Shown: positions 1 to 7,449 of the stretch, one piece after another
Layout of the letters: each line of letters starts with the position of its first letter
How positions within the stretch are numbered: position 1 is the first letter of the stretch
IMG/VR virus record: IMGVR_UViG_2671180437_000020
Direction: 5' to 3' (one strand)
Source: a virus
Taxonomy: Duplodnaviria > Heunggongvirae > Uroviricota > Caudoviricetes
DNA length: 7,449 nucleotides
The notes under the pieces: generated by a model
The model's database searches: none
Told to the model about the DNA's origin: nothing
The model's input: only the letters and a program-made list of their open reading frames with translations
Position numbers and translations under genes: made by a program

Positions 1-171
1 TCAATAAATCCCATCATTGCGATCAACCTCATCCTTAACCATTGATGCGAGCAGTTCTTCCAGTTTCTGCGCTGACAGCTTTACCTGGTGATCTTCAGCA
101 TCTTCCCGGGCTATTGTGGTTCGCGCAGTGGCTGATTTTGCTGAAATCACCACAGGGGGCAGACGGACCAT
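1..171 (-). CDS. hypothetical small protein (56 aa from the ATG at 171..169; the ORF track extends it to 282, 93 aa)
   Basis: Open frame ending with TGA at 3..1. The ATG at 171..169 is preceded on the minus strand by GGAGG with ~10 nt spacing. The longer 93-aa version would start inside the hairpin at 238..271, so the internal start is preferred. I do not recognise the protein. Confidence 0.3.
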   Translation of the reverse strand: MVRLPPVVISAKSATARTTIAREDAEDHQVKLSAQKLEELLASMVKDEVDRNDGIY

Positions 172-237
172 TGAACCATGGCCTCCGGAACAAATAAGGG
201 CAAAAATAACAACCACTATCGAAAGCTCACAAACTAA

Positions 238-271
238 CCGCAGCACGTTCCTGTATACGACGTGTCTGCGG
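238..271 (-). terminator. GC-rich hairpin 14 nt downstream of the tfa-like ORF stop; candidate intrinsic terminator
   Basis: Arms ccgcagcacgt (238..248) and acgtgtctgcgg (260..271) pair with a 1-nt bulge around an 11-nt loop. On the minus strand it is followed by UUAGUUUGUG. It is a diverged copy of the hairpin at 1288..1320. Confidence 0.35.
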
Positions 272-451
272 CATAATCCCAATGATTACTCCCTGACAGG
301 ATTTGCAGGCCACTCAATATCAGGTGCAGTTGATGTATCAACACGATTCAACAATACCCGATATTTATTCCATGCCTCCAGCAACGATCTTTCTTCCTCC
401 GTTGCGATTTCCAGATCTACAGCATCCTGCAGTGGCGCAATATACTCACTG
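238..451. repeat. direct repeat copy 1 (tfa 3' end plus hairpin), diverged copy of 1288..1500
   Basis: By-eye alignment of 238..451 with 1288..1500 gives roughly 85-90% identity, ending at ...ctcactg in both. The encoded C-termini match (…[41 protein letters not shown]…VRE). Confidence 0.7.
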
Positions 452-555
452 AATTCCTGGATGTAGAACTGTGTGGTGACGGTCTTCCAGCCATTCGGCT
501 CCTGCTGTATCGAAGCATACCAGGCTATTTCAATATCGCTATGCTGCGGCAGCAT
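286..555 (-). CDS. tail fiber assembly (Tfa)-like C-terminal domain protein, 89 aa; possibly a remnant
   Basis: The C-terminal ~55 aa are near-identical to the C-terminus of the 194-aa Tfa at 1335..1919, while the N-terminal 34 aa are unrelated. The ATG at 555..553 is preceded on the minus strand by AAGGGG with a 4-nt spacer. Stop is TAA at 288..286. Confidence 0.4.
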
Positions 556-563
556 TTAACCCC

Positions 564-592
564 TTGTAATTCATCGCCATAATTGATTTAAT
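564..592 (+). promoter_or_regulatory. candidate sigma70 promoter for the methyltransferase gene
   Basis: TTGTAA (564..569), 17-bp spacer, TTTAAT (587..592), in the 56-bp AT-rich divergent intergenic region, about 20-30 nt upstream of the ATGs at 612 and 624. Confidence 0.3.
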
Positions 593-611
593 TCACAAAT
601 AAAACTATAAC

Positions 612-1280
612 ATGGTGAAATTAATGAAAAAAAACACAGATGATGGGGCTAAAATTTACACACCACTTACCCTAAAGCTTTATGACTGGTGGGTTTTGGG
701 AGTATCAAATTGGCTTGCATGGGGATGTCCTACAAAGGAACACCTTCTTCCACACTTTCTGGAACATTTAGGTAACAACCATCTGGATATTGGTGTTGGA
801 ACTGGGTTTTACCTTACTCACGTACCTGAGAGTAGTCTGATATCTTTAATGGATTTGAACGAAGCTAGCCTGAACGCGGCATCTACAAGGGCTGGGGAAT
901 CAAAAATTAAACATAAAATTAGCCATGATGTTTTTGAACCTTATCCCGCGGCGTTACATGGTCAATTTGATTCCATTTCCATGTTTTACCTTCTTCACTG
1001 CCTGCCTGGAAATATAACTACAAAAAGCTGTGTAATACGCAATGCGGCGCAGGCCTTAACTGACGATGGAACTCTATACGGAGCCACAATTCTTGGCGAT
1101 GGAGTTGTGCACAATAGCTTCGGTCAAAAACTGATGCGCATTTACAATCAGAAAGGTATCTTTTCAAACACAAAAGATTCCGAAGAAGGCTTAACACATA
1201 TACTCTCAGAGCATTTCGAGAATGTTAAAACCAAGGTTCAAGGTACTGTAGTAATGTTTTCCGCTTCAGGGAAAAAATAG
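612..1280 (+). CDS. class I (Rossmann-fold) SAM-dependent methyltransferase, substrate unknown; 222 aa from ATG 612, or 218 aa from ATG 624
   Basis: Motif I LDIGVGTG is encoded at 783..806. An acidic residue ends the next strand (SLISLMDLNE), followed by HDVFEP and FDSISMFYLLHCLP motifs and LTDDGTLYGATIL, in the usual class I order. The pre-motif segment YDWWVLGVSNWLAWG loosely resembles the UbiE/COQ5-type N-terminal region. GGTGA at 614..618 favours the ATG at 624. The gene is visibly AT-rich compared with its flanks. Confidence 0.65.
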   Translation: MVKLMKKNTDDGAKIYTPLTLKLYDWWVLGVSNWLAWGCPTKEHLLPHFLEHLGNNHLDIGVGTGFYLTHVPESSLISLMDLNEASLNAASTRAGESKIKHKISHDVFEPYPAALHGQFDSISMFYLLHCLPGNITTKSCVIRNAAQALTDDGTLYGATILGDGVVHNSFGQKLMRIYNQKGIFSNTKDSEEGLTHILSEHFENVKTKVQGTVVMFSASGKK

Positions 1281-1287
1281 CATCCAA

Positions 1288-1320
1288 CCGCAGCACGTTC
1301 TTGCTTAAGACGTGCTGCGG
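1288..1320 (-). terminator. perfect 11-bp GC-rich hairpin between the convergent tfa and methyltransferase genes; candidate bidirectional terminator
   Basis: ccgcagcacgt (1288..1298) pairs perfectly with acgtgctgcgg (1310..1320) around an 11-nt loop. It lies 14 nt past the tfa stop and 8 nt past the methyltransferase stop. On the minus strand the U-run (UUGGAUGCUAUUUUUU) is not immediately adjacent to the stem. Confidence 0.4.
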
Positions 1321-1500
1321 CATAATCCCAATGATTACTCCCTGACAGAGTTCGTAGGCCACTCAATATCAGGTGCAGTTGATGTATCAACACGGTTCAG
1401 CAACACCCGATACTTTTTCCAGGCTTCCAGCAATGAGGTTTCTTCCTCCGTTGCAATTTCCAGATCTGCAGCATCCTGAAGCGGCGCAATATGCTCACTG
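1288..1500. repeat. direct repeat copy 2 (tfa 3' end plus hairpin)
   Basis: Matches 238..451; see copy 1. Confidence 0.7.
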
Positions 1501-1919
1501 GCTACCTGCATCAGGTTGTTTTTTGTTTCTTCCGCCTCCCGGATCCGGAACAGTTTTTCTGCTTCCGTATCCTTCACCCAGGCTGTGCCGTTCCACTTCT
1601 GAAACTCCCCTTCCGGAGATAACCAGGTGACATTTTCCGGTAACGGACCGAGTTCAGAAATAAATAACGCGTCCCCTGATGCCACGTCATAAACTGTTTT
1701 ACCCCGATGGTCTTCAACAAGATACCACGATGCATCATCACTGTTGAAAACAGCCACGAAGCCAGCCGGAATATCTGGCGGTGCAATATCGGTACTGTTT
1801 GCTGGCAGACCTGTATGAGGCGGAATATATGCGTCACCTTCACCAATAAATTCATTAGTTCCGGCCAGCAGATTATAAATTTTTATGGTCCGTGCTTGTT
1901 CACTCATTCTGAATGCCAT
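1335..1919 (-). CDS. tfa: tail fiber assembly protein Tfa (lambda Tfa/orf-194 family), 194 aa
   Basis: At 194 aa it is the same length as lambda Tfa and near-identical along its length to that sequence as I recall it ([53 protein letters not shown]...). Its ATG at 1919..1917 overlaps the upstream stf-fragment stop (TAATG). Stop is TAA at 1337..1335. Confidence 0.9.
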
Positions 1920-2902
1920 TATGCAAGCCTCACAATATAGTTAAATGCGATGTTTTTGACGGTGTTTTCCGCGTTACCAGCAGCGTTAACGGTGATGGTG
2001 TGTCCATGTGAACCAATCGCAACCGAGTGCGTATGCGCACCAATACCTACAGTATGTGCGTGTGCACCTGCGCTTGCAGCAGTACCCGATACAGAGTGCG
2101 TATGAGCGCCTGCAGAAGAAGTGTTAACACTGTATTTAGAATAATCAGGTGCTCCACTTCCCGGAGCACCACTGGAACCACCTGAAACAAATGTCATCGA
2201 ATGGGTATGTGCACCGGCTGAAGCAGCCGTACCGCTAACACTATGGGTATGCGCCCCGGTGTTATTCGTGGATTTAGTGCCGTAATCAAACGACGATGTG
2301 GTTTTCGTACCCAAATCCGTACTGGATGCGCTGGCGCTGTGGGTGTGCGATTTAATGCCGTCCTGTTCCTGAGACAATACGGCACGACCACTGGCGGGCT
2401 TGCCCTTAATCGTCCAGCCACGCATATCAGGGATCACGCCTGACGGATAAGCCACTGCAAGTTTCGGGTATGCAGATTTGTCAAAAGTCTGCCCCTGCAT
2501 CAGGGCATAACCAGACGGAACGGTATCTGATGGCCACGGGATTGGTGCACCAACAGGGTAGCTTTCTGGTGGAATATTTTTCGAGGTATAAACTTCTGCC
2601 CAGTCTTCCTCAAAACCATAGCCATCTCTTGAAGAACGGTAGAACAGACCACCATTTCTGTAATGCGCCTTCATCTGCAGGGTCCGGCAACTTCCGACTC
2701 CGGTATAGAAGTTAACCAGAATATAGCTGTCGCCAGAGCGAGTGACATTGTAAGCGCCTGATTCGGCATTCCAGGGAACGCCCCCATCCGCATCGGCATA
2801 CGTATCCGTTGCTCTTCTGGCAAAAGCAGCAACATGCGCAGCGGTTAAAGTGATATCAGTAGAACCATCAAACGAAACACCAGATATTTTTATTGCTGTC
2901 TG
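1919..2902 (-). pseudogene. stf: 3' fragment of a side tail fiber gene (about the last 327 codons), cut at its 5' end by IS1
   Basis: The frame is open from the IS1 junction at 2902 to TAA at 1921..1919. It encodes the His-rich tip (GAHTHS/GAHAHT/GSHGH) and ends ...[22 protein letters not shown], which matches the lambda Stf C-terminus as I recall it. There is no start codon or RBS of its own at the 5' end, and the first Met is at 2674. Confidence 0.8.
2153..2902. repeat. direct repeat copy A of the stf 3' segment (750 bp), flanking IS1
   Basis: Aligns with 3672..4421 at a constant offset of 1519. I count about 13 mismatches by eye (~98% identity), all within 2411..2750. Confidence 0.85.
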
Positions 2903-2957
2903 GGTGATGCTGCCAACTTACTGATTTAGTGTATGATGGTGTTTTTGAGGTGCTCCA

Positions 2958-3233
2958 GTGGCTTCTGTTTCTATCAGCTGTCCCTCCTGTTCAGCTACTG
3001 ACGGGGTGGTGCGTAACGGCAAAAGCACCGCCGGACATCAGCGCTATCTCTGCTCTCACTGCCGTAAAACATGGCAACTGCAGTTCACTTACACCGCTTC
3101 TCAACCCGGTACGCACCAGAAAATCATTGATATGGCCATGAATGGCGTTGGATGCCGGGCAACAGCCCGCATTATGGGCGTTGGCCTCAACACGATTTTA
3201 CGTCACTTAAAAAACTCAGGCCGCAGTCGGTAA
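2958..3233 (+). CDS. insA: IS1 InsA (transposition regulator / N-terminal part of the InsAB' transposase), 91 aa, GTG start
   Basis: [40 protein letters not shown]... is the InsA sequence. The A6C frameshift motif (ttaaaaaactc) near 3205..3215 precedes the insB frame. Confidence 0.9.
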
Positions 3234-3655
3234 CCTCGCGCATACAGCCGGGCAGTGACGTCATCGTCTGCGCGGAAATGGACGAACAGTGGGGCTATGT
3301 CGGGGCTAAATCGTGCCAGCGCTGGCTGTTTTACGCGTATGACAGGCTCCGGAAGACGGTTGTTGCGCACGTATTCGGTGAACGCACGATGGCGACGCTG
3401 GGGCGTCTTATGAGCCTGCTGTCACCCTTTGACGTGGTGATATGGATGACGGATGGCTGGCCGCTGTATGAATCCCGCCTGAAGGGAAAGCTGCACGTAA
3501 TCAGCAAGCGATATACGCAGCGAATTGAGCGGCATAACCTGAATCTGAGGCAGCACCTGGCACGGCTGGGACGGAAGTCGCTGTCGTTCTCAAAATCGGT
3601 GGAGCTGCATGACAAAGTCATCGGGCATTATCTGAACATAAAACACTATCAATAA
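3152..3655 (+). CDS. insB: IS1 InsB (transposase catalytic part, expressed as InsAB' by -1 frameshift), 167-aa frame
   Basis: [25 protein letters not shown]...HYLNIKHYQ matches InsB. It differs from the K-12 IS1 InsB I recall at two positions (AKSCQRW and YDRLRK). Confidence 0.9.
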
Positions 3656-3665
3656 GTTGGAGTCA

Positions 3666-6600
3666 TTACCATCCACTTCCCGGAGCACCACTGGAACCAC
3701 CTGAAACAAATGTCATCGAATGGGTATGTGCACCGGCTGAAGCAGCCGTACCGCTAACACTATGGGTATGCGCCCCGGTGTTATTCGTGGATTTAGTGCC
3801 GTAATCAAACGACGATGTGGTTTTCGTACCCAAATCCGTACTGGATGCGCTGGCGCTGTGGGTGTGCGATTTAATGCCGTCCTGTTCCTGAGACAATACG
3901 GCACGACCACTGGCGGGCTTGCCCTTAATCATCCAGCCACGCATATCAGGGATCACGCCTGACGGATAAGCAGCTGCAAGTTTCGGGTAAGCAGATTTGT
4001 CAAAAGTCTGCCCCTGCATCAGGGCATAACCAGACGGAACGGTATCTGATGGCCACGGGATTGGTGCGCCGACTGGGTAGCTTTCTGGTGGAAGATTTTT
4101 CGAGGTATAAACTTCTGCCCAGTCTTCCTCAAAACCATAACCGTCTCTTGAAGAACGGTAGAACAGACCACCATTTCTGTAATGCGCCTTCATCTGCAAG
4201 GTCCGGCAACTTCCGACTCCGGTATAGAAGTTAACCAGAATATAGCTGTCGCCAGAGCGGGTGACATTATAAGCGCCTGATTCGGCATTCCAGGGAACGC
4301 CCCCATCCGCATCGGCATACGTATCCGTTGCTCTTCTGGCAAAAGCAGCAACATGCGCAGCGGTTAAAGTGATATCAGTAGAACCATCAAACGAAACACC
4401 AGATATTTTTATTGCTGTCTGAAGTTTCGTAGCTGTATCAGAATTTCCCTTAATCCCCTTAGGCGAATTAAGTGGTGTATTGATCGTCACTTCACCTGTT
4501 GCGTTATTTACAGCAAATGGTCGAAGACCGTTCCAGCCACCGTACTGGTCGCCTTTATCAGTCATGAGCAAGTAAGTATTTGCTCCATCATTTCGCCATA
4601 TGACACCGTAATCGCCTGCAATCATCCTTAACGCGTTCTGACTACGGACAATAACTTCATCATTAGCGTAAATCTTATTCCCGCTAATATCTGACTTACT
4701 CAAAACAGGATACGAACTATAAAATCCATTACCTTGTTTAAAATCTAAAATTAAATTTACAGCAACTGATTCAGAATAAGGATCAGTTGCACCAAATTTA
4801 TAAGTTGTTTCAGCAACAACATAATCAGAAGCAGGTGCAGTAACGGAGAGTCCTTCTTCTAAAAAAACCTCTACGGGAAATGCCCCACCTTCTATATAGA
4901 ATACGCTGTCTACGGTATCGCCTTTATTACTCATCAGAATGGAATGAATAGCGCGTTCCGATGATGAATAAGCCCAGAACATACCACAGGCATAGCTACC
5001 CCGGTCCGTCCAGCCGCCTGCGCAAACAAAACCATTAAACTCACAGTTATTCATTCTGTGATTAGCTGTGCGACTTGGCGTTGAAATGACAACGCGGGAT
5101 GCCCGATGGCTGTCATTCCTTTTTATCACTAACGGATAATATTTACCTTCCTGGACACCCGCCGGGGCATTTACCACAACGTATCGCATCCCCTTTTTCT
5201 GATCCACTTCACCTTTGCTGTAAACATTAATGTTACTCAGGAAGCGGTCCTTGTCGGGAATATCAGCACCGTTCTGGTCTTTCTGCAGACGTTTCTCTGC
5301 ATTGTCATAGGCTGCTTTTACTGCCTTTGGCGTTGCCGCCAGCGTTTCAGACGTGCTGTTGGTCGCACTGCTGAGCTGTACTACCCCCTTTTTCGTCGTG
5401 CTCGCATCCTCAAGCGCCACGGCGGATGCAATATCCTCTGCACGTTTTGCCGCTGTCTCAGCGCGCGTTGCCGCGGATTCCGCCGTACTTTTGCTCTGTG
5501 CTGCCGCCGTCGCACTGCCAGCTGCCTCTGTCGCCTTCGTGGATGCTGTCGTGGCGCTGCCCTTCGCTGCTGACGCCTGTCTGGTCGCCTCATCTTTTGA
5601 AGCAGACGCCGATGATGCCGATGACGCCGCCGAACTGGCTGACGATGCGGCAGCCGTTTTTGAGGATTCTGCACGGGTTTCCGACGCTTTCGCGTTCGTT
5701 TCGGATGTCTTCGCTGCGGAAGCTGACCTCGCTGCTGCGCTGGCCTGTTCAGTGGCTTCGCCAGCCTTCGTTGTGGCTGTTGAAGCAGACGATGCGGCAC
5801 TTTCTGCCGACTTTCCGGCAGCGGTGGCACTGGCTGAGGCCTGCCCGGCACTTGTTGATGCGGCACTGGCAGATGATGCAGCCGCTGTTTTTGAGCCTGC
5901 CGCAGCTGAGGCACTCTGTCCCGCTGCCGTTTCAGAAGACCTGGCGTTCGTCTCGGACGTTTTTGCCGCCTTCGCGGAATTTCCTGCCGCCGTTGCCGAG
6001 GAAGCGGCACTACTGGCGCTTGATGATGCGTTCGTTTCTGATGATTTCGCTGCCTCTTTTGAGGCCGCCGCATCCCGGGCTGAGGTGGCAGCTTCTGACG
6101 CCTTTGTGGTCGCTGCGGATGCAGAAGTGGCTGCAGATTTTTGTGACGCTGCCGCATTCGTTTCTGACGTTTTCGCCGCACCGGCACTGGTAGCTGCCGC
6201 GCTTTTTGAGGACTCTGCAGCGGCAGCACTTTTTGAGGCTTCAGTGGCCTTTGTTGATGCCGTTCCTGCGCTGGAAGACGCTGACTGAGCCGACGTCGCG
6301 GCCTGCCCGGCTGATGTGCTGGCTGCGCGTGCTGAGCCTGCAGCATCAGTCGCATGGGTTGCCGCCTCACGGGCTGATGTGCTGGCATCACTGGCTGACT
6401 TCTTCGCGGCTGCCGTGTTCTGTGCCACCGCGGACGCGTTACGCGCCACCTCTTCCACCATCAGTTCAAAACGGCGCAGTGCCTCAGGACGGGCATCATC
6501 CTCCGTCATGGCACCGAGAAAATCATTCAGCGTACCGGGTCGGGAATCTTCATACACGGTGATGGTCCCGGCATGTGACGGCGGGAATCCCTCCACCAAC

Positions 6601-6785
6601 AGAATAACGCTGTACTGCCCGTACTCAACGTCCATGCTGTAACGCCCGGCTTCATCCGGATTTTCTGAGGCCAGCGTGTTCACCACCACCGTGGTGCTGT
6701 TACGTTTTGCTTTCAGCTGGATTGTGCAGTTCTGTACCGGTTTTCCTGTGCCGTCTTTCAGTACACCTGAAATCTTTACTGCCAT
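3666..6785 (-). CDS. stf: side tail fiber protein Stf (lambda Stf family), about 1039 aa, C-terminally truncated by IS1; likely non-functional
   Basis: N-terminus [26 protein letters not shown]... matches the lambda Stf N-terminal domain. The ATG at 6785..6783 is preferred over the GTG at 6791 and is preceded by GGGGTGA. The frame runs into IS1 and ends ...GSGW-TAA (3668..3666), with the W and stop supplied by the IS1 terminus. About 76 C-terminal residues present in the 1919..2902 fragment are missing. Confidence 0.85.
3672..4421. repeat. direct repeat copy B of the stf 3' segment (750 bp), flanking IS1
   Basis: See copy A at 2153..2902. Confidence 0.85.
5418..6431. repeat. imperfect tandem repeats inside stf encoding an Ala/Ser/Thr-rich low-complexity shaft
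   Basis: Residues ~121-458 are almost entirely A/S/T/K/E, with recurring AAKTSETNA-type units. Corresponding DNA units recur at roughly 5693, 5941, 6029 and 6146. This GC-rich repetitive stretch produces long spurious ORFs in other frames. Confidence 0.6.
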
Positions 6786-6794
6786 ATTCACCCC

Positions 6795-6849: not shown

Positions 6850-7449
6850 TCAGAATTTATAACCGACACCCACGATGAAACCGTCAGTGCGCCAGTCACC
6901 ACTGCCGGAGCCTTCATAAGCAATATCAATGGACACGGATTCGGTCGGGTTAAACTGCACGCCAGCCCCCCACGCCAGAGACGTGTTGCTGTGGCGACCG
7001 TCATCACTTCCGGTCAGCACATCGTGCTTTTTCCCCTTGTTGTCAGTTACGCGAAGATAATCCCCGGAGAAAGTCGACACACGGCTGTAAGCTACACCCG
7101 CCATCGCATACGCGCTGAACCATTCATTCACGCGCACAGACGGCCCCGCCATTACGCTGAACCAGCGGTTACGAACGGAATCTTCATGCCAGCGGGTATC
7201 GCTGTAACGGGTCAGCTGGCGATTCTTGTCTCCTGCATAGCTGAATGACGTCACCAGCCCCAGTGTGTCCGTAAACTCATAACGGTATTTCATGTTAATC
7301 CCGTTCAGATCATCACTGCCGGGGACGTTCGTCGAGGCATGAAGATACCCCGCGCTCAGCGTGGACTGATGTTCAGACGCCCATGCAGGCGCACCGGATA
7401 CGGCCAGACAAATGGCTGCGGACAAAATTGCTGCACAAACTTTACGCAT
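6850..7449 (-). CDS. lom: Lom outer membrane beta-barrel protein (Ail/Lom/OmpX/PagC family), 199 aa, apparently intact
   Basis: Signal-peptide-like N-terminus MRKVCAAILSAAICLAVSGAPAWA. The C-terminus ...DIAYEGSGSGDWRTDGFIVGVGYKF matches lambda Lom as I recall it. The start codon is the last 3 nt of the window, so the RBS is outside it. Stop is TGA at 6852..6850. Confidence 0.9.
   Translation of the reverse strand: MRKVCAAILSAAICLAVSGAPAWASEHQSTLSAGYLHASTNVPGSDDLNGINMKYRYEFTDTLGLVTSFSYAGDKNRQLTRYSDTRWHEDSVRNRWFSVMAGPSVRVNEWFSAYAMAGVAYSRVSTFSGDYLRVTDNKGKKHDVLTGSDDGRHSNTSLAWGAGVQFNPTESVSIDIAYEGSGSGDWRTDGFIVGVGYKF

Follow-up and report, generated by a model that had tools for sequence, protein, structure and literature searches.

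Gene ybcY as probable captured cargo of lambdoid prophages: a stand-alone class I methyltransferase beside the tail-fibre assembly gene

We analyzed a 7,449-nucleotide stretch of DNA from a tailed virus (Caudoviricetes; IMG/VR record IMGVR_UViG_2671180437_000020), here called the window, and focused on a gene that lies near its left end, on the plus strand. We conclude that this gene is probably a bacterial gene captured as cargo (a moron) by lambdoid prophages, encoding a 218-residue, stand-alone class I S-adenosylmethionine (SAM)-dependent methyltransferase of the ybcY/PHROG 2132 family. The gene corresponds to ybcY of the DLP12 cryptic prophage of Escherichia coli K-12 (RefSeq WP_000239881.1; PHROG 2132), a locus that already carries this name (PMC3946193; 10.1101/594564; PMC4559166). 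The window covers a lambdoid prophage's tail end, with the phage genes read in reverse on the minus strand (Table 1). An earlier reading of the letters alone (the sequence-only reading) had described an AT-rich gene opposed to all its neighbours, and both parts of this description hold. The open reading frame (ORF) is the sole substantial one on the plus strand in this stretch, antiparallel to lom, stf, and tfa and with every flanking phage ORF on the minus strand, and the plus strand is otherwise used only by the genes of IS1. The GC content of the ORF was measured at 40.5% (35% at third codon positions) versus 47-55% in every neighbouring phage gene, and the 56-nucleotide spacer upstream of it (556..611) has a GC content of 26.8%.

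We assign the gene to the cargo class because of this low GC content, a bracketing repeat, an empty site, its occurrence in several phage backbones, its rarity among phages, and the chromosomal setting of its relatives. Pairwise alignment revealed a direct repeat of 227 nucleotides on either side of the methyltransferase (236..462 and 1286..1511, 86-88% identical). A synthetic junction merging both repeats matched strain JP538 as a single 870-bp piece (96.6% identity); JP538 carries a sister prophage at the trpA-yciGFE-ompW' site, with stf, tfa, the hairpin, and the DUF4376 fragment in this order and no methyltransferase, whereas E. coli 042 carries the cassette at this same locus. The same cassette also occurs in the DLP12 remnant of K-12 and in the isolated phage 2G7b, where it stands behind a different tail-fibre module and adjoins an alpha/beta hydrolase gene, ompT, and int. 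In Citrobacter freundii, homology (91%) covers exactly 469..1292, with no tfa on either side. Among 50,697 phage records, we found the family in 14 E. coli lambdoid phages and one 1.7-kb fragment record, all at ≥98% identity, and it is present in 3,832 out of 5,426 complete E. coli genomes (71%). A single genome can hold as many as four copies, 4,877 E. coli copies were counted, and the cluster at 90% identity (222 residues) comprises 6,589 member sequences. In Salmonella (STM1638), Enterobacter, Yersinia, Klebsiella, Erwinia, and Pasteurellaceae, relatives with 55-65% identity stand alone in the chromosome, in unrelated neighbourhoods devoid of phage genes; relatives with 67-89% identity reside in islands or prophage remnants together with sodC, DinI, SopA, PerC, and CdiI. 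The gene thus varies in presence between otherwise collinear genomes and differs in composition from the neighbouring phage genes, and the moron reading put forward from the sequence is supported by these findings. That reading had named an ordinary conserved phage gene of matching composition as the alternative; across the prophages that we compared, the locus downstream of tfa was instead polymorphic and mismatched in composition.

The repeat also delimits the cassette. Homology between the two copies begins exactly at a hairpin (236/1286), runs into the last ~57 codons of tfa, and ends at approximately 462/1511. The sequence-only reading had considered the right-hand hairpin to be the terminal hairpin of the cassette. 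The hairpin itself is real, with a stability relative to shuffled sequences of z = -5.9 on the plus strand and -4.7 on the minus strand, and 66-nucleotide windows that hold it fold with energies of -23.9 and -28.5 kcal/mol, respectively, the tfa strand being the more stable. Its ownership has to be corrected: the hairpin belongs to the tfa module and not to the cassette, because it is duplicated within the repeat that also ends the second copy of tfa. On the plus strand no U-run adjoins it, and the terminator scan did not pick it up; it may still act bidirectionally. On the left side, the minus-strand ORF that faces away from the methyltransferase had been taken for a truncated tfa, which is not what we found. 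This ORF is chimeric, with codons 1-31 (463..555) coming from a small divergent phage gene (PHROG 3893) that is fused in frame to the duplicated C-terminus of tfa; Pfam Caudo_TAP covers residues 31-86 only, and PHROG 3893 residues 3-37 only. In Citrobacter, the PHROG 3893 gene is intact (79/80 residues), shares the same first ~30 residues, and is divergent from the methyltransferase. Since the first ~31 codons of PHROG 3893 are joined in frame to the C-terminus of tfa, the left cassette boundary is, judging from the sequence, an old illegitimate breakpoint inside the PHROG 3893 gene.

Table 1. Positions, in the window, of the methyltransferase cassette, its control elements, and the surrounding phage genes.
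Feature	Position	Strand	Remarks
Methyltransferase coding sequence, conserved start	624..1280	+	218 residues + stop
Methyltransferase ORF as in databases	612..1280	+	222 residues
Unique cargo segment	463..1285	+	~825 bp, between the tfa repeats; portable unit
Candidate sigma-70 promoter	564..592	+	TTGTAA (564..569)-17 nt-TTTAAT (587..592); expected transcription start near 599-600
Alternative hexamer pair, TTGATT-17-TATAAC	583..611	+	Proposed from SELEX (PMC3946193 table); overlaps 14-mer TTGATTTAATTCAC (583..596)
Shine-Dalgarno sequence, GGTGA	614..618	+	5 nt before ATG 624; AGGTGAAAT(T/C)AATG kept in 6 enterobacterial loci
Left repeat copy: duplicated tfa 3' end (last ~57 codons) and hairpin 238..271	236..462	-	Repeat families D3 and D9; hairpin z = -3.4 to -3.7
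Right repeat copy: 3' end of intact tfa and hairpin	1286..1511	-	Repeat search and alignment
Stable hairpin between convergent methyltransferase and tfa	1288..1320		Part of right tfa repeat; copy at 238..271
Chimeric 89-residue ORF, PHROG 2341, K-12 'tfaX' type	286..555	-	
Tail-fibre/DUF4376 fragment	1..282	-	
tfa, intact tail-fibre assembly gene, 194 residues	1335..1919	-	Convergent with methyltransferase; Pfam Caudo_TAP E = 1.6e-43; RefSeq annotation in E. coli 042
stf, long tail-fibre gene	3666..6791, resumes 1919..2674	-	Broken by IS1
lom	6850..7449	-	

Two small RNA (sRNA) models match in the repeat region. The model of CssrB, an sRNA of Shigella, is matched by the hairpin (1289..1320, minus strand) at positions 149-180 out of 180, with a score of 32 bits that stays under the gathering score; this partial match suggests that CssrB ends at a phage-derived hairpin on the tfa strand. 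The Rfam model IS009 (RF02111), which describes a candidate sRNA of E. coli, has a match within tfa (1378..1576, minus strand; 225 bits, gathering score 117) and one with 112 bits in the duplicated tfa 3' copy (329..532, minus strand); it appears to model the 3' coding region of tfa, a pseudogene in K-12.

The ORF had been described as a gene of 222 residues. It is present as described, but conservation does not extend to its start at ATG 612: in the alignment, each of the 39 homologues has its first residue opposite M5 (invariant in 40 sequences), the arrangement AGGTGA-N5-ATG (613..626) is kept across genera, and the null allele of K-12 destroys the ATG of this arrangement. For these reasons, the protein most likely consists of the 218 residues that follow from ATG 624. 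Upstream of it, the hexamers of the candidate promoter put forward in the sequence-only reading are present, 17 nucleotides apart. The arrangement TTGnnA-17-TTTAAT is kept, in both hexamers and spacing, in 7 out of 10 loci from other genera, and it is retained even in chromosomal Salmonella, where protein identity is 57% and coding synonymous divergence (dS) is saturated or near-saturated. Approximately 60 nucleotides upstream of the gene are kept in five enterobacterial loci, while coding dS exceeds 1 across those genera. In the ybcY-tfaX spacer of K-12, a site for the RpoD holoenzyme and a site for H-NS have been found by genomic SELEX (systematic evolution of ligands by exponential enrichment; PMC3946193). 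The alternative hexamer pair is less likely to be the promoter, because it is less conserved (its TATAAC is lost in Klebsiella and in chromosomal Salmonella and altered in Enterobacter) and because a start ~7 nucleotides further on would be expected to fall past the Shine-Dalgarno sequence. We also observed that the 14-mer TTGATTTAATTCAC (583..596) is unchanged in four out of five enterobacterial loci, with one substitution in C. braakii, and that coding dS is >1 in three of these five; the 14-mer may be a binding site for a regulator in addition to containing the -10 element.

Ratios of nonsynonymous to synonymous divergence (dN/dS) of 0.11-0.21, obtained against relatives from other genera with unsaturated dS, indicate that the coding sequence is under purifying selection; selection that acted earlier than the E. 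coli phage lineage or elsewhere accounts for most of what these comparisons gauge, the copies within that lineage being 98-99% identical. The closest described copy, that of DLP12 in K-12, is 98.8% identical in its DNA and has the same tfa'-methyltransferase-tfa' order and the same promoter spacer. It is annotated as a pseudogene (product 'putative SAM-dependent methyltransferase'). The window copy is intact, whereas in K-12 the gene is null: the conserved ATG 624 has lost its G and an A8 run one A (TTAATGAAAAAAAAC to TTAATAAAAAAAC), and the remaining 216 codons are intact. The two copies also differ in their setting, in that the window copy lies in a complete stf-tfa tail module by ompW' and the K-12 copy in an argU-linked DLP12 remnant beside appY and ompT. 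This makes K-12 a clean null of natural origin for use in complementation, in which gain-of-function tests are straightforward, and the loss of the start codon explains the lack of phenotypes in K-12 studies.

The assignment of the protein to the class I SAM-dependent methyltransferases, already proposed from its motifs, was confirmed at several levels. It passes four Pfam gathering cutoffs (Methyltransf_12, 37.5 against 30; Methyltransf_23, 28.7 against 27; Methyltransf_25, 27.8 against 27; Methyltransf_11, 24.7 against 21.2), and the PHROG 2132 hidden Markov model aligns from residue 5 over 218 out of 218 profile positions (E = 3.9e-155). Motif I (E/D-x-G-x-G-x-G) is present as DIGVGTG at residues 59-65 (222-residue numbering, used throughout) and is invariant in 40 sequences. 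D81 (in LMDLN) and D106-V107 (in HDVF) are invariant or nearly so and lie at the ends of the predicted strands E76-81 and E99-104; by family consensus, they would contact the ribose hydroxyls and the adenine of SAM, respectively. An AlphaFold2 model (mean predicted local distance difference test score 90.1) has a Rossmann fold with a seven-stranded sheet and C-terminal beta-hairpin and resembles solved class I members. The 40-sequence alignment further contains motifs specific to the family, namely an N-terminal YDWWVL..SN..AW.C.T and a C-terminal YN.KGIFSN..DS loop.

Structure searches for the nearest characterised enzyme, which the sequence-only reading had recommended, returned matches at the level of the class and singled out no one enzyme or substrate. 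Fold and sequence neighbours form a flat list of small-molecule and lipid methyltransferases with 11-21% identity. The stand-alone class I enzymes compared (juvenile-hormone acid O-methyltransferase (JHAMT; 7ec0), DhpI (3ou2), MM_2633 (3dtn), Coq5/UbiG, and phosphoethanolamine N-methyltransferases) share only this level of identity, none of them stands out, and the N-terminal and C-terminal motifs of the ybcY family were not matched to any of the small-molecule enzymes. In both single-sequence and profile searches of the PDB, matches were confined to the SAM-binding half (JHAMT, E = 1.5e-5 in the profile search, and UbiG). The UbiE/COQ5 and UbiG quinone methyltransferase models, suggested earlier as candidates, were not matched above cutoff, and no curated NCBIfam model came near its cutoff; the NCBIfam model of PmtA (Legionella) reached 15.7 bits against a cutoff of 390, over residues 56-131 only, that is, the SAM motif. 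PmtA of the Rhodobacter/Legionella type (8ys9) likewise shares no more than 15-18% identity. To our knowledge, methylated phosphatidylethanolamine has not been reported in E. coli. PADLOC gave no significant match (best mad2, E = 0.019, 11.8 bits).

The family is large, with 425 clusters (at 50% identity) at E ≤1e-30, and reaches Pseudomonas, Xanthomonadales, Rhizobiales, Acidobacteria, and, at 42-53% identity, many ascomycete fungi. Profile and representative searches returned thousands of relatives, none informatively named or characterised, and the literature on ybcY, tfaX, STM1638, and moron methyltransferases contains incidental mentions only. Longer relatives show no informative domain fusion; the one extra domain, RCC1, occurs in a protein of 743 residues for which the eukaryotic gene model may be a merged one. 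The claim that the methyltransferase has no partner gene is in line with our unbiased clustering of neighbours at 83 loci from 34 genera, in which no neighbour family occurred in more than six genera and synteny was confined to the genus level. One example is found in Pseudomonas, where a methyl-accepting chemotaxis protein of ~685 residues is encoded directly upstream on the same strand in 12 out of 27 loci, and in one Janthinobacterium locus as well (median gap 156 nucleotides; genus-level synteny only); other Pseudomonas loci have a run of DUF892, Mn-catalase, and DUF6388 genes before the methyltransferase homologue. Recurrent esterase/lipase genes near homologues were noticed post hoc, belong to different families, and were not recovered by the unbiased clustering. 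We also considered whether the gene was captured, by aberrant excision, from an original chromosomal site between yciE/katN and ompW, and rejected the idea as not general, because adjacency to OmpW was limited to three Pasteurellaceae genera and the DUF892/Mn-catalase context is not general either. In Salmonella, the sRNA gene rydC, whose product activates the mRNA of cyclopropane fatty-acid synthase, sits between STM1638, the chromosomal homologue, and cybB (10.1101/2024.02.12.579971); this adjacency is probably a coincidence of position.

Several observations weigh against parts of our interpretation. The empty site of JP538 could be a secondary deletion between the repeats and not the ancestral state. 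A terminator of its own, expected of a moron, was not found for the methyltransferase, since the sole hairpin is that of the tfa module and no canonical intrinsic terminator is present. The consensus promoter scan of the region performed at chance (3 sites versus 3.9 ± 2.0 expected), so that the candidate promoter draws its support from conservation and from in vitro SELEX in K-12. K-12 has lost the start codon without known consequence, and the function is thus dispensable in the laboratory. Finally, the substrate can be proposed at class level only, given the flat list of neighbours at 11-21% identity, and while the isoelectric point of the window protein is near-neutral (6.6; 6.8 for the 222-residue form, which the alignment includes), the median of the 40-sequence alignment is 8.9, which would also suit an RNA or anionic-membrane substrate.

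With these points in mind, we propose the following course of events. The cassette would have first joined a lambdoid phage through an illegitimate event that fused codon ~31 of the PHROG 3893 gene to the middle of tfa; homologous recombination at the conserved 3' ends of tfa would since have brought about its spread and its loss. In the lysogen, host sigma-70 RNA polymerase would transcribe the gene from 564..592 independently of the phage programme, with H-NS probably damping transcription and the tfa hairpin separating it from convergent transcription of tfa. The enzyme would bind SAM through DIGVGTG, D81, and D106, and the conserved Trp-rich N-terminal helices (YDWWVL..SN..AW.C) may cap the substrate pocket. 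Because the enzyme is compact, lacks a partner, and is conserved across kingdoms, we infer that the substrate that it methylates is small, widely available, and not DNA: a metabolite, a xenobiotic, or perhaps the head group of a lipid.

As to what the enzyme does for the lysogen, one tentative idea, which we hold to be rather doubtful, is lysogenic conversion: once silencing by H-NS is relieved, the enzyme would transfer methyl groups to a ubiquitous metabolite of the host or a lipid of its envelope, the reaction being, for instance, carboxyl O-methylation as in JHAMT and Tam or head-group N-methylation as in PmtA. Unlikely in our view is that the gene is a silent hitch-hiker, intact and silenced by H-NS, that has no current role and persists by linkage to the recombination-prone end of tfa. 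The H-NS site in the K-12 promoter spacer (PMC3946193), the K-12 null allele without a reported phenotype, and the existence of empty-site alleles all fit such a passenger, whereas the dN/dS of 0.11-0.21 and a promoter region and Shine-Dalgarno sequence that are better conserved than synonymous sites point to selection on the family; those measures, in turn, mostly predate or lie outside the E. coli phage lineage. It is also unlikely, we think, that the protein methylates tRNA or rRNA and thereby tunes translation of the host in the lysogen. RNA enzymes scored no better than dozens of small-molecule enzymes in the fold searches, no RNA-binding extension or domain and no match to an NCBIfam RNA-methyltransferase model were found, the window protein has a near-neutral isoelectric point, and a patchy accessory distribution at island and prophage sites is unusual for modifiers of the translation machinery. 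The position of the gene, which directly adjoins tfa and sits between tfa-derived sequences, suggests a virion-related role in which the enzyme would methylate the tail fibre or the chaperone for its assembly. Such a role is nonetheless very improbable: the gene occupies the opposite strand and has a conserved candidate promoter of its own, it is kept in DLP12 remnants without tail fibres and in identical cassettes behind unrelated fibre modules, its 55-65% relatives reside in chromosomes without phage genes, and recombination at the repeats accounts for the association with tfa. Orphan DNA methyltransferases are common in phages, and the protein has a SAM-binding Rossmann fold, yet we give hardly any credence to one that shields phage or host DNA from restriction, as the protein has no [DNS]PP[YFW] or PCQ motif (motif IV) in a regular-expression search, its 218 residues are wholly used by the core fold and leave no space for a target-recognition domain, its Pfam matches are to Methyltransf_11/12/23/25 and not to N6_Mtase, N6_N4_Mtase, or DNA_methylase, neither fold search lists a DNA methyltransferase among its top 50-60 matches, and, with regard to anti-defence, PADLOC gave no significant match, no restriction partner accompanies the chromosomal homologues, and fungi have homologues as well; the sequence-only reading had likewise judged it not to be a DNA methyltransferase.

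Elsewhere in the window, a 45-residue ORF on the minus strand (1225..1362), annotated in RefSeq as a 'hypothetical protein' in E. coli 042 and as a 'nucleocapsid protein' in K-12, crosses the hairpin and overlaps the 3' end of the methyltransferase and the stop codon of tfa; it is probably a spurious gene call. The stf gene is broken by IS1 (2903..3670, 768 bp, terminal repeat 2903..2925). Insertion of IS1 usually gives a 9-bp target duplication; here, the element is bordered by a direct duplication of 750 bp of stf (2153..2902 and 3672..4421, 98.3% identical). This layout was found in no complete E. coli genome, the best matches covering ~1.9 kb of a 2.6-kb query, and it could be either the product of two stf paralogues that recombined at IS1 or an assembly artefact. 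Within stf, the segment 4601..4900 has a GC content of 34.5%, which is below that of the methyltransferase cassette and of its own flanks (43-50%) and suggests that this part of the tail-fibre gene is a mosaic (recombinant) block. The Ala/Ser-rich N-terminal part of stf (5330..6400, 58-65% GC) contains many short degenerate direct repeats, in families of 41-45 nucleotides with spacings in multiples of 21 nucleotides, consistent with a repetitive fibrous shaft.

Compared with known lambdoid morons (lom and bor of lambda, sodC, ompT, and effector genes), the methyltransferase is similar in being a single gene of deviant composition, with its own, here candidate, promoter, situated among or behind conserved late genes and, presumably, transcribed apart from the late operon. 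It is also found together with such genes: lom accompanies it in the window, ompT in 2G7b and DLP12, and sodC in C. braakii. Unlike these morons, which encode envelope or secreted proteins with known phenotypes, it encodes a cytoplasmic enzyme in which no signal peptide was noted, and a dedicated terminator is not evident, the hairpin being that of tfa. The gene is already known, is annotated in thousands of genomes, and is ordinary as a sequence feature. What our analysis adds is incremental: a revised start codon, the boundaries of the cassette, the chimeric origin of the tfaX-type ORF, filled and empty alleles, a conserved candidate promoter, and the start-codon null of K-12. Its value lies in a well-defined target, as the family is intact, selected, and extends to fungi with no member characterised, and carriers include the inducible coliphages 2G7b, ev243, and the PhiR series. 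In addition, the locus provides a clean example of cargo shuffling among lambdoid phages, probably by recombination at the conserved 3' end of tfa. If the lysogenic-conversion idea were true, the enzyme would change stress tolerance, surface charge, or signalling in ~70% of E. coli strains, a phenotype that would have been missed since the K-12 copy lost its start codon, and it would provide the first function for a cross-kingdom family of bacteria and ascomycete fungi.

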